This document shows, in pieces, positions 3,801 to 25,717 of a stretch of DNA of 25,717 nt (position 1 is its first letter; each line of letters begins with the position of its first letter). The stretch is from Psammoneis japonica. Lineage: Eukaryota. A model generated the notes under the pieces. It ran no database searches. It was not told where the DNA came from and saw only the letters and a list, made by a program, of their open reading frames with translations. A program made the translations under genes and the position numbers. Location: NCBI GenBank assembly GCA_008632985.1, contig QPGO01000024.1, forward strand, positions 697,848-723,564, written 5' to 3'.

Positions 3801-4109
3801 AAGTGCTTGTAGTCTTGACCACAACGCTAATCGATGTTAATCCCGACACCCCAACATGCGTCTTCTCAACTGACTGCGATGGGATGGATGGAGAAATCTG
3901 AAAATCAAAAATCCAACGCACCGACTATGTGGGAAAAAAGGAAAAACAGGACTGGTTGTGTCGTGAAACGCGATCTTCCGCTATATTCAATAAATCGGTT
4001 CGTGTATATGGATACAGCACATCTTCTGTGCTGTGCACTGTGCACTGACGTAGAATCAGTACTGGCGCCTACAGAGCATACTATAGACCGAAGTACACGT
4101 CACGCGTGG

Positions 4110-4158
4110 TCGTGGGTAGTCGTGGTATTGATCGTACCTGGTCGTACTTGTAGTCGTA
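4110..4158. repeat. Array of five TCGT(G/A) motifs with 10/12/10/12-bp spacing
   Basis: TCGT begins at 4110, 4120, 4132, 4142 and 4154. Confidence 0.6.
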
Positions 4159-4297
4159 GAAAAGCAACGGAGGCACTGCGCTCACCAGAATTGAGAGTCG
4201 CTCGTCGAAACGCGAACGAGTGAAGCACGGCGCGATACCACTGTAGACAATGATGAACAACGCTATGTATTTCTATGTATTGGTAAGTCCTGTCCTC

Positions 4298-6406
4298 TTA
4301 CAGTTTTGCCATATCGAATGTAGGCTTGTGATTGACACCCTTGTTGCACGTCCTGAACTTTGACAGGGGCCCAGAATTCTCTTGCAAAAAACAATCAACC
4401 TTGCCGTCGCAGCAGTCGTCAAGGCACTGTACGACCCTAGCGGCTCGATATGCAAAGCTTTTGATAGGATCTTCCAAGGACTTACCGGCGCGCACCTGAT
4501 CTTTCACGTCCTGGCATGCATCCACAAATACCTGAACCTTGGTAGCAGCGTCCTTGGTGGATTTAAATTCAGATTGGTGGTCACGATCAAACTGTACGAC
4601 GGCATCACCTGTGGACTTGGTTTTTTTGGTGTTCCTTTCATCTTGAGCTGGGTCAGTAGCAGCTCGCTTCTCCCTTGCACTGTTGGCATTGGTGAGTACT
4701 TCAAAAGTTGTAGACTGTGCAGCACGCACTCTTTCTGCAGCCGACTTGTCGTGCATTCGCATCACCACCTCTGCCTTGCTAGATCCAAGCTCACGAATCA
4801 AGAACTGCTTCATTTCTTCTTCATCAGACAAGTCCGGGGTGTATGATGTAGCTTTTGTGAACAGCTGCTTGACAGTCAATAAGTTGCTCTGCTGCACACC
4901 AAGCAGTTCCGTCACGCACCAATCAGCAAGTTCTGGTAGAGGCTTGCGGTACCTGGCAGAGTCTACCATGACGGATGCAAATGAAGAAAGATGCTTCATA
5001 TGGATGGGCTCCCATTTACCAACACGGTGAGCATCCTTGTCCTTTTCCCTATCAACTAGAGCCTTCAGTGTGCCACTGTCAGAAAGGTAAGTCGCGGCAC
5101 TTGACACATTCTTGTGACGAGCGCTCAGCAACATGTTCGCTTCGGCCATCTCACCCAGCCGCCCTCCGTCACGCGTAGAGCCCCATTCAGCAAACGCAAA
5201 GCCAGTCCTTCGAAGAATGTGTGTTCCAATGATTTCAGTTGACATCTTGTCAATGTCTCTTCCCAGAATGGTTTCGCAAGCAAACTTGAAAAAATCCAGG
5301 AGCGAGTCGCATGGAAAATTTTCGTCGTGATGTTCCTTGTTGAGCTCCAACTCGTCTCTAGTGGGAAACAACTTGCCCGACTTGATGCCAGAATAATGCA
5401 TCCAAAGGAGAATGGCAATAGTTCCTGAGAATTCAGGACATTCTTCATCGTCCCAAATCATGAAATGAAGATCCTTCTCGTCACGCTTGCCACGGATTTT
5501 GGTGCAGAGACCCTTGACGGCATTTTCCGACACTTGGAAGTACTCGGTGACAAACTTTTCAACCGTCATCTCCAAAACTTCTTCACAGCGTAGAAATGAC
5601 TTTGTACCAACAACAATGATAGTCCAAAGCATTAGATGATGCTTGTCATTATGTGACAAACAGCAGTCTCGAATAGCCCGCACCTCGCCCGGCAAGAATG
5701 CAAAAGCACTTCTAGCTTCGCAGCAGTTTGATGCGCAGTCTTGCCATTGGTCAATTGCAGCCTTGAAATCTTCATGTTTGGTGGCATTTCCACGACGCCA
5801 GAAATGGGGATCACCAGGGTGTTTGCGGCATCCAGTGCCCTTTCGGGCTTCCTCCTCGCCAATCTCATGACAAGCAGTGCACATTTCTCGGTGTTCGCCA
5901 TTGGTCGTTTCGCAGTGCTTGTGAAGCTTGCTCATGGCAGTGCGGAAGAGCCCAATGGAAGAATGACCTTTCCAATCACCAATGCAGGTGATAGGGTTTC
6001 CATACCGGTCCTTTACAGGAGCGTTCGTGCGGTTGTGAAGTAGTGGTTCGCCTTTTTGTTTTGTCCTGAACTGAGCAAACTGGATTGCTGCATCCAAATT
6101 CGAAGGAAAAGGATCTGATGGACACAAGTCACGTGCCGGCAGCATGGCACTTTCAGAATCATCAATCAGGTAGCAGAAGTCACGAAAAAGCCTCCATATG
6201 GGTTCATGCCGTGCAATAGAACTAGTCGCAACAGCGTCAGTGCCCACTTCGCCGGTCTTTTTGTTCTTTCCTGTAATTGCAAGTTTTGGTGACGTTGTGT
6301 CAAGCTTGTACTTCTTCAGTGTCTTATTCAAGCTCGACTCACCAAGAGAGCGGGTTTGCTGCGTTATTTTGAATCCGCCGCCCTTCAAAATAACGTAAGA
6401 TGTCAT
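4298..6406 (-). CDS. Tyrosine recombinase/integrase of Crypton type, 702 aa from first ATG
   Basis: Catalytic residues in canonical order: FLR(C)EE (Arg, codon 5590-5588), KIRGKRD (Lys), GTHILRRTG (HxxR), SARHK (His), AATYL (Tyr, TAC at 5089-5087). Also a CxxC...CxxH cluster upstream. The ORF track starts at a TTG (6505); the first ATG is at 6406. Confidence 0.85.
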   Translation of the reverse strand: MTSYVILKGGGFKITQQTRSLGESSLNKTLKKYKLDTTSPKLAITGKNKKTGEVGTDAVATSSIARHEPIWRLFRDFCYLIDDSESAMLPARDLCPSDPFPSNLDAAIQFAQFRTKQKGEPLLHNRTNAPVKDRYGNPITCIGDWKGHSSIGLFRTAMSKLHKHCETTNGEHREMCTACHEIGEEEARKGTGCRKHPGDPHFWRRGNATKHEDFKAAIDQWQDCASNCCEARSAFAFLPGEVRAIRDCCLSHNDKHHLMLWTIIVVGTKSFLRCEEVLEMTVEKFVTEYFQVSENAVKGLCTKIRGKRDEKDLHFMIWDDEECPEFSGTIAILLWMHYSGIKSGKLFPTRDELELNKEHHDENFPCDSLLDFFKFACETILGRDIDKMSTEIIGTHILRRTGFAFAEWGSTRDGGRLGEMAEANMLLSARHKNVSSAATYLSDSGTLKALVDREKDKDAHRVGKWEPIHMKHLSSFASVMVDSARYRKPLPELADWCVTELLGVQQSNLLTVKQLFTKATSYTPDLSDEEEMKQFLIRELGSSKAEVVMRMHDKSAAERVRAAQSTTFEVLTNANSAREKRAATDPAQDERNTKKTKSTGDAVVQFDRDHQSEFKSTKDAATKVQVFVDACQDVKDQVRAGKSLEDPIKSFAYRAARVVQCLDDCCDGKVDCFLQENSGPLSKFRTCNKGVNHKPTFDMAKL

Positions 6407-6545
6407 CGTCGAGTGTGTGTTTTCTCTCTCGCGAACGAGAAATGCGAGTTTTTGATGATTTTCTTTTGGCGCGCCCCTCGAGTTTTCGAATGACCCTTTG
6501 GACAAAGCTACTTAGGGACGAAAGAAAGTCAAAAATTACTTATCA

Positions 6546-6592
6546 GTGCACCGCTGTGCACCGGAAACTATGCCAGTGCACTTGAAGTGCAC
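6546..6592. repeat. Array of four GTGCAC palindromes (two more at 4033 and 4040)
   Basis: GTGCAC begins at 6546, 6556, 6576 and 6587 (spacing 10, 20, 11). Confidence 0.75.
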
Positions 6593-6792
6593 CGCCCCCT
6601 TCAACTAAGCACACGTCACTATCTCAAAATATCACCCCCCCTCTGGTGCCTATAGATACACTTGTCGCTCCGTCCGTTCGGAAACGCTATCGCGCACCGC
6701 ATGCAAGCACTCAATCAGGCACGCGGATTGCGTATTGCGTTGCGTTGCGCTTATCTTTACCCGCATGGGCACTGCCAGTTTCGTCATGATTC

Positions 6793-7956
6793 ATGATGTC
6801 CTTTCGATTCCTAGTTTCGATACTGAACACACTCTCTTGCTTTGGGTTGGTGAACGCGATTGAAAAGGTACGCGTAGTCTAACCGGAAGCAACAGGATTC
6901 CCAATCCCAACGAGGCACAGTAGCGGCTCAATTTCGATCCACGGAGCATGCAGGATACGCTCATGTTTTTTCGTTGTCGTTTCTTTTAAGGTTATGCCCG
7001 GCCACACATTGCAAAATGATCATTACAGCCCATTGCCTCATACATACATTGCGATGTCGGAACTTCCGGAATCATTCTTGGCGCCTTTTTTGACTGCATC
7101 GAGGAATCAACACATTCCTCAGTACTGTGGTTCTTGTTGGGCTCACTCGTCCACTAGCTCCTTGTCTGATCGATTAAATATCGCACGTAACTCAACACAT
7201 GGTCCAGAGATCAATCTTTCTATCCAGTTCCTCTTGAATTGTGGAGCAGAAATTGCAGGCTCTTGTCAAGGCGGATCAGCCACGGGAGCATACGAGTTTG
7301 TGAAAAAGAAAGGCTTCATCCCATACGACACGTGTCAGCCGTACATTGCGTGCTCCTCTGATTCTACCAATGGCTTTTGCAGTTTTGTTGACACGTCGTG
7401 CTCTCCACTTAATATCTGTCGAACGTGTACAAATCCGTCAAAGGGCGGAAAGTGTGTTGCGATCGCAAGGTTTCCCAACGCGACGGTCGCTGAGTATGGC
7501 ACTTATCACAATGATATTCACGCCATAATGGCAGAGATCTATGCGAGAGGTCCGGTGAAGGCTTCTATCAATGGCAAACAAATCGAGGCCTACAAGGGAG
7601 GTATCATTTATGATGATCCTGCCTTGAGGAATATGACACATAATCACGGTGTATCAATTGTTGGCTGGGGCAAAGAAAAGTCAACCAGCGTACAGTTCTG
7701 GATAGTCCGTAATTCTTGGGGTCAATATTGGGGTGAGATGGGTTTCTTTCGGGTTGAGCTCGGGAAAAATCTTCTTGGAATCGAAAACCACATTGCCTGG
7801 GCGACGCCGGGCTTTTATTCCACAAGCAATTTCCCCTGTGACGAGGATGGAAAGAATTGTGAGCAATGGCAATATGCCAAATACACCGATCCCTCTGCAA
7901 ATCTTGCCGCTGTGAAACGGCGTCTCCGGCTAGATCGAAAGCGAGGATTAGGATAG
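6793..7956 (+). CDS. Cathepsin Z/X-like papain-family (C1A) cysteine protease; exons 6793-6867 and 6991-7956
   Basis: RNQHIPQYCGSCWAH (cathepsin Z/X HIP mini-loop, oxyanion Gln and catalytic Cys), NHGVSIVGWG (His), VRNSWGQYWGEMGFFR (Asn). Exon 1 encodes a signal-peptide-like MMSFRFLVSILNTLSCFGLVNA-IEK, joined by a phase-0 GTACGC...TTTTAAG intron (6868-6990). Confidence 0.92.
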
Positions 7957-10865: not shown

Positions 10866-11755
10866 ATGAAGCTTGCCGTCGCCGCCCTCCTCCTAGGCTC
10901 TGCCGCTGCCTTTGCCCCTGCCCAGTCAGGCAAGGTATGTTGATCGGCGTGGTTATGTGTCCCATGTTGCTTTCGTCGCGGAGTGCGCCATTGTTGAACC
11001 GCGTTGCGCCGGTGTTTGTCCGTAAAGAATCCAAGGATTCGTGGTTCTTACCTCTTTGTCTGCTTTTCTCTTTACTAAAATCGCTAATCTGAACACAAAA
11101 CGTAGGCATCCACCGCCCTTAATGTCAATGAGCTTGAGCTTGGTGCCACCGAGCCCCTTGGTGTTTGGGATCCTCTTGGATGGATGACCTCGGAGCCGGA
11201 GGCGTTTGAACGTCGTCGTGCTGTCGAGCGTAAGCACGGGCGTATTGCTATGATGGCCGTTGTCGGAAACATCGTCCACAACAACCACATTGTTTTCGAT
11301 GGATACCTGTCCCCTTCCAATGACCTCAAGTTCTCCGACATTCCCACTGGTATTGACGGAATTTTCAGTGTGCCAAACGCCGGAATTGCCCAAATTGTCC
11401 TTTTCTGCGGATTTGTTGAGCTCACCTGGCTCCCTGCTTCCCAATACGACGGAGACTATGGCATCGGTTACTTTGGTGGCGATATCTTTGATCCCGAAGA
11501 AAAGGCACGCAAGCTCAACGCCGAACTTAACAACGGACGTGCCGCCATGATGGGCATCTTCGGAAACATGGTTGCCGAGAAGCTTACCGGCCAGACCATG
11601 TACGAACAGGTAGGAATCATCTCTTCCTCGTTTCCTTATGTGTGGTTTTACTGTTGCTGACGCTTTTTTCTTGTTTGTCTCGCTCCTGCTTCTTGTAGTA
11701 CGCCGCTGGACACTTCAACCCATTCAACGATGGACAGGGACCTCTTTTCAACTAA
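10866..11755 (+). CDS. Fucoxanthin-chlorophyll a/c binding light-harvesting protein (FCP/LHC, possibly Lhcq-like); exons 10866-10934, 11106-11609, 11699-11755
   Basis: Presequence MKLAVAALLLGSAAA-FAPAQSGK (ASAFAP-type), WDPLG, helix 1 ERKHGRIAMMA, helix 3 ELNNGRAAMMG. Two phase-0 GT-AG introns (10935-11105, 11610-11698); last exon YAAGHFNPFNDGQGPLFN-stop. Subfamily assignment is inference. Confidence 0.95.
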
Positions 11756-12684
11756 GTTCCATGCATAAGGAATGAACGGAAATAGACGCTTGTGGTAATA
11801 TATAGTAACCATTGGAAAAGTCTCTTGTTTATACCATTAGCAAGAATTTTTCATCAATTTGTTAGTATCAGTGGTCACTTAGAGTCTTGGCGTTCTACGC
11901 CGAAGAAGGTTTGAACAATTTCCTACATGTACCGTACTGAAGGCGCAACCGCACATGAAAGCAAAAAGATCCTAGAGAAATCCATTGTTGAGAAGGCCTT
12001 GCAAGTCCACTTCACAAGCGAAAAGAGCGGATCTCGCGTTGACTAAAAGATGCAGCCTTCAGGATAAAGAAGAAACGATCCCATCTTCATATGTATTGAT
12101 GCCCAATTCTTTAGGCAGTGAAACTCTTTTTGGACTGCTACCTTGTGCTACCAACACAACCGACAAACAAGAGTTGAGTGTTGAGTCCTCATCGAAAAAT
12201 GGTCTTTACAATGCCGTACTCTGGGTACTACATTAACACGTCACAAGCCTAATTATTAGATTGGTCATGACATTCCAACTGGGTGCATGCAGGCAGCATT
12301 CGTTGTCTTCACTGCCTCTATCTAGTTTAGAGTATTCTGTTCTGCGGTCCACTCTCAACTCTCTCTAGTAGTAGATAGAGGCTCTACTCTAGGGCTACTC
12401 TCCAGCTAGAGTAGGGCCCTCTAGAGCTACAATACGCAGCCCGGTAGGTCTACCGTAGTACCGTACTCTAGCTAGGGCCCTACCGGGACCAGAAATCAGG
12501 GCGATCGAATTGTTCGATTGCGCGTCTGTTGTACTGTACCTCGCGTTTTCTGAGATCTCAATCGTGGAAGAGGTGACACCTTCTGACACGATGACACAAA
12601 AAATTCCCGAACTCTGATGGATTTGGTGTCGATTCATCATTCTCATTCACGTTCTTACAATACATTTGTATCTCTCTTAGTATT

Positions 12685-13416
12685 ATGATGGAGACGACCA
12701 AACCCGAAACAGCAGCTGATGTCCTTGAAGGAGTTTCTCATGTGGACCATAGGACTCTAATCGAAAAAGCCGAAGATGTGCTGAGCTCATGGAAGAAGGT
12801 TGCGAACGCGGAGAAGGAAAAGGCAGAAGATCTGAGTTACTACGCGGAAGAACTTTGGCTCGAGGACAAGAAGCTTTGGGCGTCTGGGAAGCGCAGGGTT
12901 CTTCGCAAGGAGTGGACCGTCGAGCATTTCAATGAAGAAGCTAAAGCCCTGAAGAAGAAACAAGAACCCGTTTGGGACGAACTTGAGAAAAGGGCTGACA
13001 CTATCGTCTCTTCTCTCAATGATCCTTGGAATGACGTTGGTAAGGTTCACAAAGCCATCAAAGACGGGCTGCGTCCCAAGTGTGAAAAGTTCATCCATCC
13101 GGTGGTGAAGGTTTTCGGTGTCAAAGACACTGCGGAACAAAGCAAGCTTCGCCACCACTACCAGATGAAGTTACGCGAACAGTTCAGGGAGGCTGAGGAC
13201 GTTTATCAGATGTTTTGTGGGTATCCTGAAGGCTATCTGACGAAGCCCAGGTTGTTCAGGAAGAACGCTTCCGACGAACGTCGTCACATCATCGAGCTGA
13301 TCCACAAGGATGAGTACTGGCTCAGCCATGACAAAAAAGCTCCAGCTGAAGAGGCGGCACCAAAAGGTGAAGCTTTCGAGAAACCGATGGAAAAAGAAGT
13401 TCAACCGGAACAGTAG
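12685..13416 (+). CDS. Hypothetical charged, likely helical protein (243 aa)
   Basis: Uninterrupted ATG-initiated ORF with coding-like codon usage, rich in E and K. No recognisable motif. Confidence 0.7.
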   Translation: MMETTKPETAADVLEGVSHVDHRTLIEKAEDVLSSWKKVANAEKEKAEDLSYYAEELWLEDKKLWASGKRRVLRKEWTVEHFNEEAKALKKKQEPVWDELEKRADTIVSSLNDPWNDVGKVHKAIKDGLRPKCEKFIHPVVKVFGVKDTAEQSKLRHHYQMKLREQFREAEDVYQMFCGYPEGYLTKPRLFRKNASDERRHIIELIHKDEYWLSHDKKAPAEEAAPKGEAFEKPMEKEVQPEQ

Positions 13417-13646: not shown

Positions 13647-15599
13647 CTAGAGTGCTCGTATTGCGTCGTCGCAGTTTGGAATGAACCTTTCGCCCAGCTC
13701 GGTCAGGAGCACTCTAGAAGCTCGTAGCGACTTCTTCACACTACTGACCCATTTCCCCGCCGCTCTATCTTTCTGTGCATCATTGAGCAGATCCGTTGGA
13801 TCGCCACTTAAAAATTCATCATCAAGAATGCCTTCGCCCATAAAGGCGTTTATGAACATGTCCACGAAATCGGTCGCACAGAAACTGCCCATTCTGCCAA
13901 GCTTTTCCGAGAAGAAGACAGCCACGTCGTTATTGATGTTCGACCCTCTGCTCCCAATGATCTCGTTCCATTTCATGGCTTGCTGTAAGAGGCTCAACGA
14001 AACAAGGGCATCTCCTGGGTCCAGAATCCTTTTTTCGCCTCTAACTATTTTGGCACGAGAGTTGCTTAAATACCGTTCAAGTTTCTCGTCACCGAAGGGC
14101 TTCTTCGAAGAATCAATTTGTTTGAGTAAGTTGTTGAGACACCGCCTGTAGTTGCAGGTCACTTCAGCAAAGCCGATGGGGAATGGTCCTTTCGTTGTTT
14201 CACGGTCGGAATCACGCTTGCAGTCGACGCGAGGAAAAGATTTGCCCTCCCTTGTGATGAAAACAGTTGAATTCTTCAGACGTTCCTCAATTTCATCCGG
14301 AGTGATCGTTCCGTTGCTATCCTGAATAAGCAATGCAGCACATGCCGCTACGTGTGGTGAAGCCATCGAAGTTCCGCTTCTAGTGTTAGCGCCACCTCCA
14401 AGTTTCGAACCCATGATTGAGTTCCCTGGGGCAAAAAGATCAGTCTCCATGTTGCTGTTGGTGAAGAAGGAAGGGCTGTCGTCATCATTCGATGACGCAA
14501 CGGCAATCACTTGACTCAAGCAGCCGGGCCATCCAATTTCAGTTGTGCTCCCTTCGTTTCCTGTCGATGCAAAAGCAATCACTCCCTTATTGCGAAGAGT
14601 GTTGATCGCTTCTGCTCCCATCCTGCCGAATGATGTTGAAAAATCGCAAACGCCAGCGAATTGAGTGAACGTACCAACGCTCATGTTGATTATGTTTACT
14701 CCAAGCTGTGGGTTAGCAATAAGATAGTCCAAAGCAGCAACTATTTCTGAAGCAAAGAAGAAGAAACCTTCTCTGTTTGTCACTTTAATAGCAACAATAT
14801 TTGCATCGGGAGCCTATTGCCACAGAACAAGTGGAGGGCACGATAGCTTAGAAAAGCAAACGATAAACATTGCACAATTCAAAAAATTTGATAAGCTTAC
14901 CACTCCAACAGGTGCCTGTACCCCATTCGACGAAATGATGGAAGCAACGTGCGTCCCATGTCCATCGTCGTCTTCAGCAGCGCCCTTACCGAATTGTCGG
15001 TCGGAGCCGTTGGGACAATCGCCAGAACCATTCACGGTGCCGTCGTCGTCAAGAAAGCAAGCTTCGTGGATTAAGGTACCTTTACCCACCAAGTCTGGAT
15101 GGTCAGAATCATATCCTGAGTCAAGTACAGCGACAACAACACCATCTCCTCTATTTCCAACCTTCTGTCGCTGATCAGCATTTATGAGTGGCACGCTCTG
15201 AGCGAGCGAAACGGTTCCACCAACGTCCAAATCGACCATGGCAACATTTGGGTGTTTTTCGAGAGCTTTTACTGTGTCTTCGTCTTTGGTTGTAAGTACA
15301 AAACCCGCAACATTTTTGAACCTGTGCTTGACCTTAAACTTTCCCCGTGGGAGTTTTGAAATTACGTCTTCTTGTATTTGCTTGATGCTGCCGCTGTCAT
15401 GGAGGAATCCCGGGATGTCGACTCCTCCACCAGTTCTGCCTCTGAGGGCTACAATTAGCTGAGTGTTGCCTCTTCTCTTCAAAGAACGACGTACTTCAGG
15501 GGCTGCCTTTTTCTCAACAGCAATAGACTGATCCAATGAGTGAAAAAGAGCAAACGCAGTCAAAGCAAAGGCGGCAACTCTTCCCGGGTAGAGCTTCAT
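13647..15599 (-). CDS. Secreted subtilisin-like serine protease (S8), 621 aa; exons 15599-14901 and 14813-13647
   Basis: Signal peptide, I9-like propeptide, catalytic triad VAVLDSG / HGTHVAS / SGTSMASPHVA and oxyanion STGNEG. An 87-nt phase-0 GTAAG...AATAG intron (14900-14814) joins APVGV to APDANIVAIKV. Confidence 0.92.
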
Positions 15600-18426: not shown

Positions 18427-21400
18427 ATGGCAAAGAAAGCAATTTTAGACGTGCTGGAAAGTACGATCGGAAAATACGTCAAGTCTCTCGACTCGGAGAG
18501 TCTCAATGTGGCCGTTTGGAAAGGAAACATCCAGCTTCATTCTCTTGAGCTCAACGTAGATGCTGTAAACTCAGAGCTGGATCGTCAGGCCGCCGAAGCA
18601 CCCAACCTGGCGCTTCCGTTTAGGGTTATGGATGGGGAGTTCAGCAGCCTTGAGGTCGTTGTACCGTGGTCAAGAATAACCAGTAAACCCGTCATACTGC
18701 GAGCGAGAGGATTGAAAGTCCTTGTTGAGCCATGCGATCGACTTTCGCAAAACCACCTGTATGATAAAAGCAGTGCGGATAAAACGGCAAAGAAGACAGA
18801 AGACGCTAGAATTCAATCGTTAAAGCGAGCCGACGCCGCAAGACTGCGGGCCAATGCGCTGCGAAATCTGGCCGATATTGACGTGGCAGCAGGGGACGAC
18901 GCCAATGTCGACTCTACAAACAAGCCAACATCGTTTGGATCCCGTCTCGTTCGAAGAATCATTGAAAATCTTCAGGTCGAAGTGAACGACGTGCATGTGT
19001 CACTCAAAGGTGCAGGATGCTCGGCTGGCGTCGTTTTGTCTTCACTTTCTCTCGTCACCACCGACAAGGATGGAAACAGAAGTTTTGTAGACCGCACGAC
19101 AGCTAGCAAGAATGTCGACAAATCCTTCCTTTACAAAGCGCTTCGTATTCAAGGTCTTGGAGTATATCTTGATGATGAAACCTCCAATTTTGCAATCCCC
19201 ATGTCTGTCCCGGAAGGGCGACAATCGGATGGTTCTGACTCGGTACAGCATTCGTATGTCTTATCTCCGCTATCCTTTGAGGCGAAGCTTCGACAGTCGG
19301 ATCAACTCGAATGTATCGATTTTCCGAAATACTTGCTGTCTTCGGAGCTCTCACAGCTCTCAATATTGCTGTCGCGGAATCAGCTGGAGTTGGGCAACAA
19401 GATTGCGGCGGCCATCAGGCCTTCTCAGAACTTCGCCATACCTCTTTTTCCACAGTATCGTCCCTTAAATAGGGTTAGCGAAGAAACAGCCAAAGAATGG
19501 TGGAGATATGCGGTGCGGTGCATTGGCAGGCTCAATGGTAGGCGCTCTTGGGTCGAGTTTCACACAGCTTTTCAAAAACGCAAGAAGTATATACCCCTTT
19601 ACAAGCGCCATGCTCATCATGAGACTTGCCCTTGGTTGAAGCCTTTGTCGATAGAAGAAGTGGAGACCGTGATAACCACAGAACAAGATCGTGCTATCTC
19701 TGTTGAAGGCATAATGACATGGCGGAACATTGCTGATGCACAAGTCGAACGAGAAAAGAAAAAACACGAATTGACGAAAAAGGTTTCAGATCAGGGCGCC
19801 AAAAAGTCGTATCTGCCGTCCTTTTTCGGGGCGTCAAAGGGCGAAGATGAGTCACCGGACGAGGAAGATCCTCCAATATCCTTGACAGTAGAAGAAATGA
19901 AAGAGCTCGAAGCAATTAGTCTCGAGCAAACCTCTGAATCGGAAGTCTCAACAAATTCAAAGCTTTACGATATCAAGTTTACTCTGGGTGCTTCAAAATC
20001 GATTTGATAACACATGGGATGAGACCTTTGGCGGCATTGGATATGGGCGCGGTGACAACCACATTTGATGCAGCTGCGAACGGATCCTTTCGTCTTTACC
20101 TTTGTATCTCCGGCCTCATGGTTCACGACAAGACTACCCTTAAGAGCCTGTTCCCTACTGTCATACGTAGCTTGCGGTACTCGTCACAAGAGGAGGGGGC
20201 TTCAACCACTGGTGCATTCAACGTTCGCTTGGAAAAGTCGAAGACCGGTGACCAGCAATTGATTCTGCGCATGGCAGCTTTTCAGATGGTGGCCTCATCG
20301 GTAATGTTGAAGGATGTAAAAGCCTTCTTCTCGCTTTCCAATACCGCATCAGTTTCCGCGTCGCAACACTTCAGGCAGAACCCACTCTTAGAAAAGTCTT
20401 TGAGTGGTTCGGTTGATCTTTTTTATGACGCCGGGGCGCATTCCATGGAGGCTGGGGCGGTGGACATTGTTGACGAAACAGCCGCAGCCGCGAGAGCAGC
20501 CAGTGCCGCAGTGTCGGACCAGCTATCTACTGCATTAGCAGATGCCTGGAAAAGTAAAATGAAGACAAAGACTACCTGGATAATTGATTTTGATGTCTAC
20601 GCCCCCATCATTATTCTTCCAGAGAGTTGTGTTGATCCGACTACCGATGTGCTGGTCTTTGATTTGGGTCACTTCAGTTTGAAATACGGCAAGATTGAGC
20701 CACCGCAAAGTATATTGGAATGGTTTTCAAGTCAACCGAAGCGAAGCACTGTGAAACCGGATCCTCTCATGGATTATGGCGAACTTGTGGTGTCTAATCT
20801 TATGTTTGTTACAGGGAAAACAGGTCAGTTGAACTGGGATGACTCTATGACAGAACTAAAGTTGCTTAAAGAAGAGCAGACTGAGGCTGTAATCGAGCCA
20901 CTCTCGCTCAACCTCAAAATGGGGGTAGAAACCGCTCCCAATGACGAGCGCCCCCGCATCTGTACGTTTGGCGTTCTACCTACGGTTTCGCTCCGGATAT
21001 CTCCAGCTCAGGTAAAAAGTACGGTGTCTGTTCTCAGTACTTGGCGAGATGTTCTAGAAGATATGGGTGCAAAGAAAAGTGTTGAAACTGTTGTGGATGC
21101 GGGCGGTATATCCATTCTCGATGAGGTCGAACGTGACGGAGGCCGTGATGCGAGTTCAACGTCAGTGACGAGCTCTATCTTGAAAAGGTCGTCAGCTGGG
21201 TTTCAAGGCACTTCGAAAGCAACAACCATAAGTGAAACACCCACAGGAATTGAGGGTGGTCTCGATGACCTTACTGTTCTGCACTTCTCTATCGCTTTGC
21301 ATCGGCTATCAATCTGTGCCGTCACTGATGACGGGGACGGTTTAGAGGCACACCTGGTTTCTGTGTCGTCGTCTGCGTCTTTGACGGGCGACGGAGGTGC

Positions 21401-24400
21401 TTCTTGTCGCCTGAAAATGGGATGGTTTTGGATTTTGGACCGTTTATCGAGTGACTTTCCACGGGAGCAGCGACTGCTGGCTCATTCAAACCTCCCAAAA
21501 CCAGCAGCGTCATTTGCGGAAAACGACGAGTACAATGTTTTTGCAGAATTAGAGAAGCTTGGTGCCTTTGATGACAGTTTCTCTGGCTCTACAGAACTTG
21601 CAGACATCACTTTGAAAATGTCCGGAAGAAGCTGTTCTAATTCAATCGAGCTGTCTGATCCACTGGCGGCACAATTTCGGAAAGAGAATGAAACCGTGGC
21701 AGTTAATTTTATCGATGCGACATTTTCGAGTTTATATGTTCAATGGAATCCAAAAGCAATCCAGGCAGTGACATCGGTACGGTCAAAATTCTCTCTGCCA
21801 CAGAAGCGGCTGTCGCTACCCGAGGTGTCGCCGCGGCTGTCTGTGATTGAGTCGCCATTAACTTCGCCTCGACGAGAATCTCTCATGAAAAGCTTCGAGT
21901 CTGATGAATTTTCGCTCTCGCAGACGAAAGCTCAGCTCTTTGTTTTGAAGGCCGAGATGAGGCACCTCGAGATATCCTTGAATTCCGCCATAGACGATCT
22001 ACCACTTTTTGAGATGACAATGTCTGACACAAAAGTGAGTTTTCATTCTTCAGAGAACGGCGAGCATAGCAATACGAAGGCCTCGCTTGAACTTGGGGAT
22101 GTTCGAATAGAAGCACCCACTAATGGGAAAACGCGGCAATCGTACAAAACTCTTCTTGGACTTGCCCCGCACCAGTCAACTAGTTTGCTCTCTGTTCAGT
22201 ACAGTATGGGCCGTCAAGCAATCCAATCATTATCACTTCAGGATGAGGGTGTCGATACCTGCGACGCTTGCGCGAAGATTAACCTATCACCCATGAGACT
22301 GGTCTATATACATTCGCAGGTCTTGACGCTGGTTGAATATGTTACGGAGGGCATTTTGGGCGCGCTTTTTGCGAAGGCTGCTTCATCGGCTAAAGATGCC
22401 GCCATTGAAATTGCCAGTTCTGTTATTGGCGGGAAGATTTTTGCCATAAGAGCCGTCGGCGCCGACCTCATCATACCGCAAGCCGCTTACTCTTCAGAAC
22501 ACCTTACCCTCCACGCTGGAGACCTCAACGTACGGTACCATTCTCCTCCTGGCCCGGGTGCTGTTTCAACAGCAAGTCTCGCGCTTTCAGAGGTGTCGCT
22601 GCAAGATGACGCTGGAAGGTCGATGGTAGAAACGCCGATCGCAATGGCTATCGACGTGGAACTGCCACCAATTGGCGAAGGGACAGCCGAACAACAGACT
22701 ATGCGTTTGGTTATAAGAATATCCCAAGCTTCATTTCTGATGTCGAAGGCTCAGTATGAACAGATGATGAATACGCTTGAGTTGAATATTGGCCAAAGTG
22801 ATTCATTTCTGCGCGGTGTTGGCGACCGCACAAGGCTCGTCGATGAAAATGAGGAACACCCTATTGAAATTGGAGCATCTAGCGCATCAACAAAAGTAGA
22901 CGTCGCACCTTGTGCGCATGAAAGTGGTCTCACGCAGGGCATTTCTCATGCTGGCGTTGTGGTAGTAGATAACCAGAGGCGTATCTATATCGATTTCTTG
23001 GTGGACGTCATGTCGCTCGAGCTTTGTGGCGATGATGTCGACGCCCGCATTGTACGATTAGCTGCGGTGAAGACGTCCATTTCATTTAAGATGATACCGG
23101 ACGAAGAAACAAAGCTCGTAGACATGAAATTGCTCAACCTCGTTTGCGAAGATCGAAGATTGAAGGCGGTTGATAGGGAATTCCGATCCCTTGTATCCCA
23201 GGTGGACAATCGCGAAGGCGACGTTGAAAATGACGTATTTCGACTTGCATACGTGAAGAAAGGGAGCAAATCAAGCGAACTCGATTTGCGCATTGGGTCA
23301 CCACGCTTTGTGTTCATTCCGGATGCAATTGCTGACGTGCTGGGCTTCGTATCACTTGAAAGCAGTGGCAGTCTCACGGAAGAGGGCAAGCTCACAGGTT
23401 CGGAAGACTCTTCGTACGACGAGAAAGAAATTGAGGTTCACTTCAACGAGCATGGGGAGGCTGTGGAAACGTCCTTTGTTCCTTCCAGAGAAGATGTTTC
23501 AACGTCTTCTATTTCGATATCCACCGGAAGTTGCAGCGTCGTTCTGGTTGATGTTGGATACTCCTCCAATGCAGTGAGAAGAGCATCGATGGTTCTGTCA
23601 ACTGCAGGGTCTACTGGGCAGGTGATGGAGGCGATCGTCCTTCAAGGAGCATGGAACGCCAAGATGTCTCGTGTGTCTGAAATCGATGGCGGCAGACTTC
23701 TCAGCACGGATATAGAAATGCATGGCGAAGGGATGGAGATATACAGTGCACATGGAAGGTTTCTAGAGAGTCCGTTGCAAATTGTAGAACCCGCAGAGGT
23801 GACTATGGTAGTCGCGATGAAGTCAAGAGCAAGGAATTCTACAGACGTTGACATCAAACTGGTCACCTTATCGCCGATATATATGGTGTTTTCAATGCAG
23901 AACGCAGCTCTCGTGAAAGCCATTAGTTCCGGGTTTTCACAATCTCTCGGATCGGAAGCCAAAGATGAGCAAGTTGTCCACATCAGCGAGCAAGAGGCAT
24001 CACGAATTGAACGACTGGCGCTACAACTTGAATCTCATAGTGGTATCGAAGTTTCGAGCGACGGGAAGGTGTTGCATAGTCAGCCGTCTGAGGCGGCGTT
24101 GTCTTCGGTGACATCGCCAGGTTCCCAAGAGAGTACTGCTTCGCTAAGTTTGGACGTAAAGATGACCATGCCAGAAACAACGATAACGTTCATCAATGAT
24201 CTACAAGGTATGGATGAAGCCCTGTTCAGAACAACAGCTAGGAGCTTTGTGGCCGGTGCTCAGGTCAGGAGCGGCGTTGTTCCTCAGGCTGGATCCACAC
24301 ACCAAGTTACCTTTGATTGTCATGTCAATACCTCTGTTCTGGCGGATTATTTTGATACTTCCACGAATATGTGGCAACAGCTTTTGGTGAAACCTTGGGA

Positions 24401-25717
24401 AATCACAATGAACAGCGCTCGAGGAGTCAGTCGGAGATTTAACTCTCAAAGAATGTCCACTACTGTGGACATCGAATCTTTCCCGTGTCACGTGTCGTTC
24501 TCAGAGCAATTCCTTGTCGGTATTGGCGCTGCAAATCGCATGTGGTCGGTCTATTCTTTGGCTTCCGCTGATGGTACCGCGGAAAAGATTTCGGCAGAAG
24601 CAAGAGAGAAGGTGTTGAGTTCGACTCGCTCTTTGATTACCACCCTACCGTACGCAATTGAGAACCATTCTGGGATTGATGCAATTTTATCTTTGAAGGG
24701 GGAGCGGGGCGTCGAACGCTCTTGCCCTAGTGGAACTGTACAGTACTTTCGATTTGAACCTCCTCGCCGTCAAGGTTGTGGCGGACTTCGGCGATACGGA
24801 CAGGATGTTTCCCAGCTAAAGGGTCTTGTTTTGATGCTGGGTGACAGAAGAATAGAAATAGAAAACATCGACGAGGAGATAAAACAGCCCAGGCACGCTC
24901 ACTCACTAGGATACGGGCGTTTTGTCACGATTCAGGTTGTGAAGAAGGCAAACTACGGTAGGTTTCAAGTGGACTCTAGCTTGCTCCGGATCGATATTTG
25001 TTTCTCCCGATCTCACAAGGTTCGTGTTTTGCATTCCTTGTCGAACCAGGTTCTGCATATCAGCAGTATGGTAGACATACGAAACAACTGCTCGACACCA
25101 ATCCATCTAGCCGTCTTAAAGGATGGCGAGACTCACGATATCGGCTTGTGCGAATGCGAGCACGGAGGCCGGCATAGTACGAGGCGTCGGCCATCCTCTT
25201 TTGCGTGAGTGACGCTCGTGATTCGGAAGCCAGCCGTAGGTTCGGGATTCCAGTTAATTTAGTTGGAAATAGCTGTGGCGGGTCGCTAAAAGAGGACACT
25301 AGTTCTCCTTCGTCACTACTGTTTTCCGCATCTTGTTGGGAAGATGAAAAACGGAGTTATGCGGAGAATCGACCTGTCGTTTTTGCATGAAAGCTTAAGG
25401 CGTGTTGGAGACGGCGCATCGCAACGATTCGAAGTTACGTGCCGGGGGCAGCCTCGTGACAGATCACTATGCGAAGGCTCCAGCGGTATCGTTGGTTACG
25501 ATTCTGATCCCTTTGTGGTGAGAGTGTGCGCTAAACTCCGAATGGTAGACAGAAGTCATCCATTCGTCGATTTAGTTGTTGAGCCAAGAGCGTTTCTCGA
25601 GAACAAGATGCCTGTCAGCATCTGCTGTCGTACTCCAATGCCTCATACTTCAGCACCTCGCGGAAACAAATGAGAAACGAGCAGGGAACCCGGACACCAC
25701 CGTCGACGAAATTCACG
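18427..25717 (+). CDS. VPS13: Vacuolar protein sorting 13 family lipid-transfer protein, 5' part, interrupted by frameshifts and presumably continuing past the window end
   Basis: Chorein-N start (LESTIGKYVKSLDSESLNVAVWKGNIQLHSLEL...VVVPWSRITSKPV...IIENLQVEVNDVH), QYRP...KEWWRYA, DVYAPIIILPE...VFDLGHF, YFDTSTNMWQQLLVKPW, and VAB-like PYAIENHSG and EPRAFLENKMPV. Spread over ORFs 18427-20007, 20004-25208, 25205-25390 and 25344-25673. Confidence 0.9.

Follow-up and report, generated by a model that had tools for sequence, protein, structure and literature searches.

Probable TpA-specific hypermutation of a Crypton-like transposon copy in the nuclear genome of a diatom-like alga

How can the open reading frame (ORF) of a mobile element stay free of stop codons while the protein that it encodes loses most of its conserved tyrosines? 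This question is raised by a 702-codon ORF on the reverse strand (positions 4298–6406) of a 25,717-nt stretch of contig QPGO01000024.1, which as a whole we call the window. The ORF is intact, encodes a recombinase (P0001) and forms the hypermutated body of a mobile element of ~2.7 kb, on the same strand, with an approximate extent of 3987–6719. It carries a TpA to TpG/CpA signature of definite direction, which is present in several copies of the element, is restricted to the ORF body and has a second case in a relative. Our best explanation, which taken as a whole we regard as highly probable, is that the window carries one copy of a multi-copy, Crypton-like DNA transposon of the nuclear genome and that this copy underwent hypermutation at the DNA level that was specific to the dinucleotide TpA and converted it to TpG or CpA.

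P0001 has 20 full-length homologues, 19 at 36–55% identity and one at 28%, and its family as a whole is large, with 1765 representatives of clusters at E < 1e-3. At 13 columns of the resulting 21-sequence alignment at least 60% of the other sequences carry Tyr, and at these conserved Tyr columns P0001 itself has four Tyr, five Cys, two His and two other residues. If the environmental relative P0019, to which we return below, is set aside, the remaining 19 sequences have Cys at none of the 13 columns and three of them have one His each; the Tyr to Cys/His excess of P0001 over these 19 is highly significant (Fisher p 2e-8). Conserved non-Tyr columns are kept in P0001 at a rate of 0.81, as in the other sequences, and thus the loss is specific to Tyr. 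A wider survey covered 142 family members with a residue at 5 or more of eight conserved Tyr columns: Cys and His together exceed 30% only in P0001 (5/8) and P0019 (6/8), and 112 members have none. The original prediction, made from the DNA alone, had read Cys and His residues of the recombinase as former Tyr, and the homologues agree with it, as the conserved Tyr columns are not Cys or His in 19 of the 20 other sequences, bar at most one His. It had also derived the motif GTKSFLR of P0001 from a more hydrophobic precursor; the family has G-I-K-L-FLR in this place, and other copies of the element carry Leu at residue 270. The Cys of VDACQ, which had likewise been taken for a former Tyr, is not supported as one, the closest homologue (P0005) also having Cys there.

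Other copies of the element are available as contigs from two sequencing runs (X1 and X2) of the same organism, from one sample; the X2 contigs are probably RNA, although the kind of X2 is only guessed in its record. Comparison of the window with these contigs lists 364 differences, and it is the best-supported 40 of these 364 that were classed by dinucleotide context. At 23 of the 40 the window has CA or TG where the copies have TA, and at six the window has TA where the copies have CA or TG. A further five are CpG versus TpG/CpA differences, of the kind left by CpG decay, two are other transitions and four are transversions. TA<->CA/TG exchanges thus make up 29 of the 36 transitions (binomial p 5e-10, for an assumed background in which ~30% of transitions would fall in this class by chance). 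The near-identical X2 contigs give the same picture, with the window having CA or TG against TA at eight of nine differences. Over all X1 places, irrespective of context, there are 82 C>T, 71 G>A, 68 T>C and 49 A>G differences and 93 transversions.

The 23 sites comprise 16 at which the window has CA (4410, 4603, 4687, 4917, 5098, 5105, 5107, 5132, 5310, 5614, 5664, 5721, 5724, 5736, 6076 and 6245) and seven at which it has TG (4579, 5072, 5249, 5414, 5598, 5641 and 6208). Eighteen are non-synonymous and five synonymous, the latter indicating that the pattern is mutational and does not arise from selection on amino acids. Ten of the sites lie in codons that are Tyr in other copies (residues 67, 224, 228, 229, 248, 256, 366, 497, 610 and 666), which is the reversion of Cys and His to Tyr that had been predicted; in these copies residues 265 and 425 are Ile, residue 270 is Leu and residue 437 is Thr. 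Among the individual sites named in advance, H67, C224, C228, C229, C248, C366, C497, H610 and S270 are all matched by a TA state in other copies, whereas the His of RMHDK and T268 (as a former Ile) do not appear among the best-supported 40 differences.

The homologues and the copies can be combined at the 11 codons for which there is a clear majority among the homologues (Tyr 67, 224, 229, 256, 366, 497 and 610; Ile 265 and 425; Leu 270; Thr 437). The residue found in the other copies is the majority residue at all 11, and the window's residue at none. In the class of opposite sign there is a single informative site, residue 131, where TA is again ancestral, and it follows that the other copies have also been hit, at different TA sites. 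When polarized in this way by the homologues, all 11 changes in the window and that at residue 131 are T>C or A>G, and at the protein level they are of the types Y>C/H, I>M, L>S, T>A and I>V. That TA is the ancestral state and TG or CA the derived one, as originally claimed, is therefore borne out both by the 20 homologues and by the less-mutated copies of the same organism.

This polarity also bears on the suggestion that mutation has spared the window copy and that the other copies have suffered C-to-T changes at CpA, as in repeat-induced point mutation (RIP). RIP in ascomycete fungi converts CA to TA and TG to TA, thereby creating TpA. Exactly these exchanges distinguish the copies, and the differences between copies by themselves give no direction. 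Against this account, most of up to 20 homologues share the TA state at 11 of 11 codons and the window state at none, and 19 of the 20 other sequences have Tyr at the conserved Tyr columns. By enumeration, moreover, RIP-type changes give stops from CAA, CAG and TGG, yet the relatives are intact. We consider a RIP-like origin barely credible, and the pattern runs opposite to RIP, as had been proposed, with TA ancestral at 11 of 11 informative sites. The same enumeration yields 0 sense-to-stop changes for TA>TG/CA; the earlier statement that TpA changes are unable to create stops is correct, and this property answers our opening question, since an ORF mutated in this way remains open while being degraded.

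The excess of CA-class over TG-class sites (16 versus 7) leans toward A>G on the sense strand of the ORF. The two strand classes are interleaved along the ORF, with 13 runs among the 23 sites where ~10.7 would be expected (hand count). The base 5' of the mutated T may also seem to matter, being G (T-A-C on the A strand) at 14 of the 23 mutated sites against 35 of 106 unmutated ones (p 0.017). We set this apparent preference aside, because TAC is the commoner Tyr codon of the recombinase ORF and confounds the comparison.

A second and independent case of the same conversion is, on the evidence of its protein sequence, provided by P0019, which is 75–77% identical to P0010 and P0013. It differs from these two at 93 of the 514 columns at which they agree, with Tyr turned to Cys 11 times and to His seven times, Ile to Thr three times and to Met twice, and Leu to Pro twice and to Ser once. 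The lineages of its kin, P0010 and P0013, have no Y>C/H change among 36 and 26 changes, respectively. P0019 retains one of 12 conserved Tyr, has a Tyr content of 0.5% and carries Cys in the column of the presumed catalytic Tyr (Y440 of P0001).

The scarcity of TA that had first drawn attention to the locus is real. There are 13 TA in positions 5101–6000 against 38 in the 963-nt papain-like gene at 6994–7956, and both of the TA-free stretches noted in the recombinase ORF exist: 5713–5992 is the longest such gap of the window (279 nt with no TA start between) and 5176–5359 the third longest (183 nt, likewise). The observed/expected ratio (o/e) of TA is 0.38 in the ORF and 0.58 in the window as a whole. 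Core segments of the ORF have the minimum TA o/e (0.30) among 56 sliding windows of 900 nt, the next value being 0.34, and also the maximum mean TG/CA o/e of the window (1.38–1.44). CpG is retained while TA is scarce (ORF CpG o/e 0.76), as had been remarked, and the 10 Tyr and 24 Cys counted in the 702-residue protein are reproduced. The Cys codons are 18 TGC to 6 TGT, compared with 42 to 39 in the host ORFs. With the 10 lost Tyr restored, P0001 would have 20 (2.8%), in line with the 2.3–3.7% seen across the family. Nonetheless the bulk TA depletion of this ORF is a modest outlier, and composition alone would not reveal the process; because this depletion is not exceptional, the signal becomes compelling only once it is polarized.

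As to where the footprint lies, the 23 derived sites span 4410–6245, within the ORF body. The flank of the element downstream of the ORF (3987–4297) is not TA-depleted, with 24 TA, a TA o/e of 1.18 and a CpG o/e of 1.35, and it is almost unchanged between copies: an X1 contig covering 4027–4577 has two differences to the window, at least one of which lies inside the ORF. Of 20 TA sites in the flank at most one has changed, whereas the ORF has 23 changed sites out of 76 (Fisher p 0.02). Non-coding DNA at 11701–12600 has a TA o/e of 0.88. The nearby non-coding DNA is thus not TA-poor, which argues against a genome-wide mutability of TpA. The host light-harvesting complex (LHC) gene keeps five of six conserved Tyr and has Cys or His at none, which is a weak control, as selection would remove such changes. 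The changes may be confined to the transposon, as proposed, the footprint lying in the ORF body and the nearby non-coding DNA being TA-rich; the 3' flank of the element itself is spared, and the host has been checked by composition and by the one LHC control.

Two further features overlap this interval. CpG o/e in the ORF body is 0.65–0.81 in three of four segments and 0.96 in the fourth (6101–6406), while the flanks of the element (3987–4297 and 6407–6719) have values of 1.21–1.35. The CpG-poor body, together with the five CpG-decay differences between copies, suggests that cytosines are methylated over the same stretch as the TpA footprint. On the forward strand, antisense to the ORF, there are two putative introns of the form GTAAGT...AG, of 84 nt at 4282–4365 and 92 nt at 5085–5176, each of which is skipped in an X2 contig. 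The skipping suggests that spliced antisense RNA is made across at least 4199–5597, where the contig depth is high (131–1790).

The probable antisense RNA brings into consideration A-to-I editing of RNA by an ADAR- or ADAT-like enzyme with a 5' U preference, acting on sense and antisense transcripts and fixed in the genome through reverse transcription. In favor of such a route, both strands are hit, and the putative spliced antisense RNA overlaps the ORF, so that double-stranded RNA could form. It would also suit the restriction of the changes to the transcribed body and the lean toward sense-strand A>G, which is seen in the sites (16 versus 7) and in the excess of Y>C over Y>H, both in P0001 (5 versus 2) and in P0019 (11 versus 7). 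However, the element has no reverse transcriptase, consisting of a single Cre-fold ORF in ~2.7 kb, and the copy retains both non-coding flanks and is a full insertion. The probable RNA contigs (X2) have A or T where the DNA of the window has G or C, which is the reverse of editing. Finally, the corresponding signature in the chlorarachniophyte Bigelowiella natans arises de novo in the DNA of a transcriptionally silent region, according to the available text of the preprint that describes it. We therefore regard RNA editing as very improbable.

An artefact of assembly or base calling, in which C or G would have been called systematically for a modified base at TpA, deserves still less credence. 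Modified bases can give systematic consensus errors in some long-read chemistries. The X1 contigs, however, match the derived states of the window over entire segments, for example with 0 differences in 4713–5050 and 6327–6638, including the C at 4917. They also hold TA states, so that both forms exist, although X1 may be the source of the window. P0019 has the same pattern and comes from another source, and the B. natans precedent rests on Illumina data, as far as the available text describes them.

The most serious competitor is that no special process operated, and that neutral decay of a dead copy is combined with codon usage, amino acid composition or a genome-wide mutability of TpA. Several observations speak for it or otherwise weigh against our explanation. 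TA is low throughout the window (o/e 0.58), and the remaining ORFs span 0.31–0.63, a range that includes the 0.38 of the recombinase ORF. By codon phase the TA o/e of the ORF (0.25/0.41/0.47) overlaps the host ORFs and four metagenomic relatives (L001–L004), and the value at codon boundaries (0.47) is not below that of host genes or relatives. The sole difference seen in the unique flank, at position 6813, ~90 nt past the element, is again of the TA versus TG kind (A in the window, CTAGT; G in all X1 contigs, CTGGT). Spill-over, a strain difference or chance may account for it. The spared flank of the element is a misfit to any process that marks the element as a whole. The spectrum by sequence context is that of the best-supported 40 of the 364 differences, and the contigs, being from one sample, may be the window's own source and hence not independent of it.

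Set against the absence of any special process is first the spectrum itself, in which visible transitions fall so predominantly at TA<->CA/TG. A genome-wide process would also erode TA in the non-coding DNA near and inside the element, and this DNA is TA-rich (0.88–1.18). Tyr has been lost to Cys or His at seven of 13 conserved columns while other conserved residues are kept at 0.81. The sole mutation-accumulation study of a diatom reports, in its available text, a GC>AT bias with CG, CC and TG as mutagenic contexts and no TpA effect (PMC6604790). On balance we judge an explanation without a special process to be improbable, although less so than RNA editing. Side by side with this comparison stands a Lys/Glu-rich ORF at 12685–13416 on the forward strand, which has no Pfam match. 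At 0.31 its TA o/e is below that of any other host ORF, but TG/CA is not raised (o/e 1.08), and this ORF is thus without the hypermutation signature.

What kind of element has been hit in this way? Neither P0001 nor any of the 21 aligned sequences matches a Pfam family, and a sequence-profile search of the PDB with P0001 returned only a chance match (E 0.79). An AlphaFold2 model of P0001 (pLDDT 82) has Cre recombinase as its top PDB match (E 5e-5, TMt 0.62–0.67), followed by structures of XerH, lambda integrase and Flp. In the 21-sequence alignment R273, H396, R430 and H431 are invariant and R399 and Y440 at least 90% conserved, and P0001 retains all of these conserved catalytic-type residues (R273, H396-x-x-R399, R430, H431 and Y440). 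The spacing of H431 and Y440 is nine residues, which we take to be the same as that between W315 and Y324 of Cre. With Cre as the best structural match of the model and R273, H396-x-x-R399, H431 and Y440 in place, we assign P0001 as a predicted tyrosine recombinase with a Cre-like fold.

The recombinase is the single ORF of the ~2.7-kb element, which encodes no reverse transcriptase, and the anatomy of the element fits a Crypton-like DNA transposon. The approximate limits of the element are those given by contig depth and by a contig that skips it. The X1 contigs that map on 3900–6900 number 105, at 80–100% likeness. Their word depth is ~55 in 3900–4000 and 56–76 in 6728–6900, rising to 250–1100 within 4001–6626, a 5- to 20-fold increase inside the element. 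One X1 contig joins 3986 to 6720 at single-copy depth, skipping 2733 nt, with a shorter side of only 30 nt; it may be an empty-site allele, in which case the insertion would be polymorphic. A 13-nt direct repeat is found on the forward strand toward either end of the element, its left copy (AAGTACACGTCAC) at 4091–4103 and its right copy (AAGCACACGTCAC) at 6607–6619. The one mismatch between the two is TA versus CA, as had been pointed out, although the repeat itself may be a chance match, the likelihood of a 13-nt match between two 300-nt flanks being ~1 in 20 by a rough estimate. TATGG termini could not be placed at both ends, there being a TATGG at 4007 near the left end with no right-end partner. 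When shorter protein fragments were searched for, no copy from the same species came up, the one match being 41% identical, and none of 43 candidate stretches from viral contigs contained a relative. Seven metagenome loci encode proteins 30–43% identical to P0001 (L001–L007), none of which is P0019.

The element lies among ordinary eukaryotic nuclear genes. The LHC exon at 11106–11657 shares 77–87% identity with proteins assigned to diatoms, Triparma and a dinotom, and from this sequence identity we identify the host as a diatom-like ochrophyte, and not Bigelowiella. Two neighboring genes are split over more than one ORF. A VPS13-like gene on the forward strand is divided between 18427–20007 and 20004–25208, with a 4-nt overlap and Pfam VPS13_N matches at positions 6–487 and 516–723; a change of frame or a short intron may divide the gene at ~20004, or the split may be an assembly error. 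A subtilase (Peptidase_S8) on the reverse strand is divided between the adjacent ORFs 13647–14783 and 14814–15599, probably by a short intron.

What acted on the DNA copies of this element is a TpA-specific A:T>G:C process. TpA being palindromic, one such transition in either of its strands gives TpG or CpA. Some 23 of the ~76 TA sites in the ORF body have been hit in the window copy, and other TA sites in other copies. Changes within codons turn Tyr (TAY) into Cys or His, Ile (ATA) into Met and Leu (TTA) into Ser, and in codons that follow a T they turn Thr into Ala and Ile into Val. The process may be targeted to the body of a silenced, bidirectionally transcribed element, for which the spliced antisense RNA over the ORF could supply the guide, and its chemistry would be an enzymatic base conversion at TpA. 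By analogy, this process and the TpA-only hypermutation of integrated viruses in B. natans would be of one kind. ADAT2 and TadA deaminate A34 of tRNA, which follows a conserved U33, and deamination of adenine to hypoxanthine by an ADAT2/TadA-like enzyme is our leading candidate, tentative as it is. A mutagenic thymine modification such as 5-hydroxymethyluracil (5hmU) comes second and seems unlikely to us; a 5hmU-forming enzyme silences transposons in dinoflagellates, as the available text of a published study describes (PMC11572971). Both the enzyme and a role in genome defense are things that we infer rather than observe.

The one report so far of a targeted mutator whose changes run counter to those of RIP and APOBEC comes from a single chlorarachniophyte, where it acts on viral inserts and has no known enzyme. 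Its signature in a diatom-like alga suggests that the process is not peculiar to one species; it widens the targets from viruses to transposons and moves the question to a group that includes genetically tractable models. What was already known is the TpA-only signature, described very recently in the integrated viruses of B. natans, going by the available text. What is new is the stramenopile host lineage, a multi-copy DNA transposon as target, a footprint that does not extend beyond the ORF body, and the recurrence of the pattern in P0019, a relative from the environment. Replacement of Tyr by Cys or His at conserved columns of an intact frame offers a simple detector, at the protein level, for genome mining. 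It also carries a warning for annotation, as transposase ORFs that look intact can be heavily mutated. One may speculate, on what is for now a doubtful footing, that TpA-directed A:T>G:C hypermutation is an old and widespread defense of algae of the SAR clade (stramenopiles, alveolates and Rhizaria), and possibly of more eukaryotes. It would disarm transposons and viruses, being guided to the transcribed body by sense and antisense RNA and erasing Tyr, Ile and Leu codons, that of the catalytic Tyr included, while making no stops.

Several known systems share parts of this behavior. Like fungal RIP, the process seen here is a dinucleotide-specific transition hypermutation of repeated mobile DNA in which different copies are hit at different sites; RIP, however, converts CpA to TpA and makes stops, whereas TpA is here converted to CpA or TpG and no stops arise. 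ADAR and ADAT editing resembles it in producing A>G with a 5' U/T preference, and the locus probably has a sense/antisense transcript pair, but those enzymes act on RNA, whereas here it is genomic DNA that is changed, in an element without a reverse transcriptase and with probable RNA contigs in the unedited state. In AID/APOBEC mutagenesis, too, the host hypermutates mobile DNA by transitions in a short sequence context. APOBEC enzymes make C>U (G>A) changes in TC/CC contexts of single-stranded DNA, usually in a strand-coordinated manner, whereas the changes here are A:T>G:C at TpA with the strands interleaved. With regard to the element, the likeness to Crypton and CryptonS transposons, as far as these are described in the available text, lies in a single tyrosine-recombinase ORF, the lack of a reverse transcriptase and a conserved C-terminal region. 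CryptonS elements are described there from oomycetes and one diatom, a stramenopile host range (Kojima and Jurka 2011, PMC3212892), with 5–6-bp terminal direct repeats and mostly TATGG termini (PMC3212892). In the window element TATGG could not be placed at both ends and no Pfam family matches, and it is likened to them by anatomy.

The closest precedent is provided by mutation-accumulation lines of B. natans. In the integrated nucleocytoplasmic large DNA virus (NCLDV) and virophage regions of these lines, 230 of 231 mutations were A>G or T>C, all of these on TpA (10.64898/2026.01.13.699255; this and the following statements are taken from the available text of the preprint). The rate in the viral regions was ~6e-7 per site per generation, in some lines only, which is ~1000-fold above background, and TpA-poor coding sequences were enriched in transposase and reverse-transcriptase domains (10.64898/2026.01.13.699255). 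Mettrop et al., the authors, draw a comparison with RIP and put forward an ADAT2 homologue as a candidate (10.64898/2026.01.13.699255). Diatoms are not mentioned in that text of the preprint (10.64898/2026.01.13.699255), and among the sources returned by our literature search, as far as their text was available, we found no report of a TpA-only signature beyond it, and none for diatoms. The two systems have in common A:T>G:C changes at TpA, to TpG and CpA on either strand, a footprint that lies in foreign or mobile DNA, and long-term TpA depletion with enrichment of CpA and TpG. They differ in host, a chlorarachniophyte there and a diatom-like ochrophyte here, and in target, single-copy viral inserts of 25–186 kb there and a 2.7-kb multi-copy tyrosine-recombinase transposon here. 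The evidence differs too, a measured de novo rate being available there and comparison of copies and outgroups here. A last distinction is that the footprint described here ends inside the element, with the ORF body hit and the flank spared.

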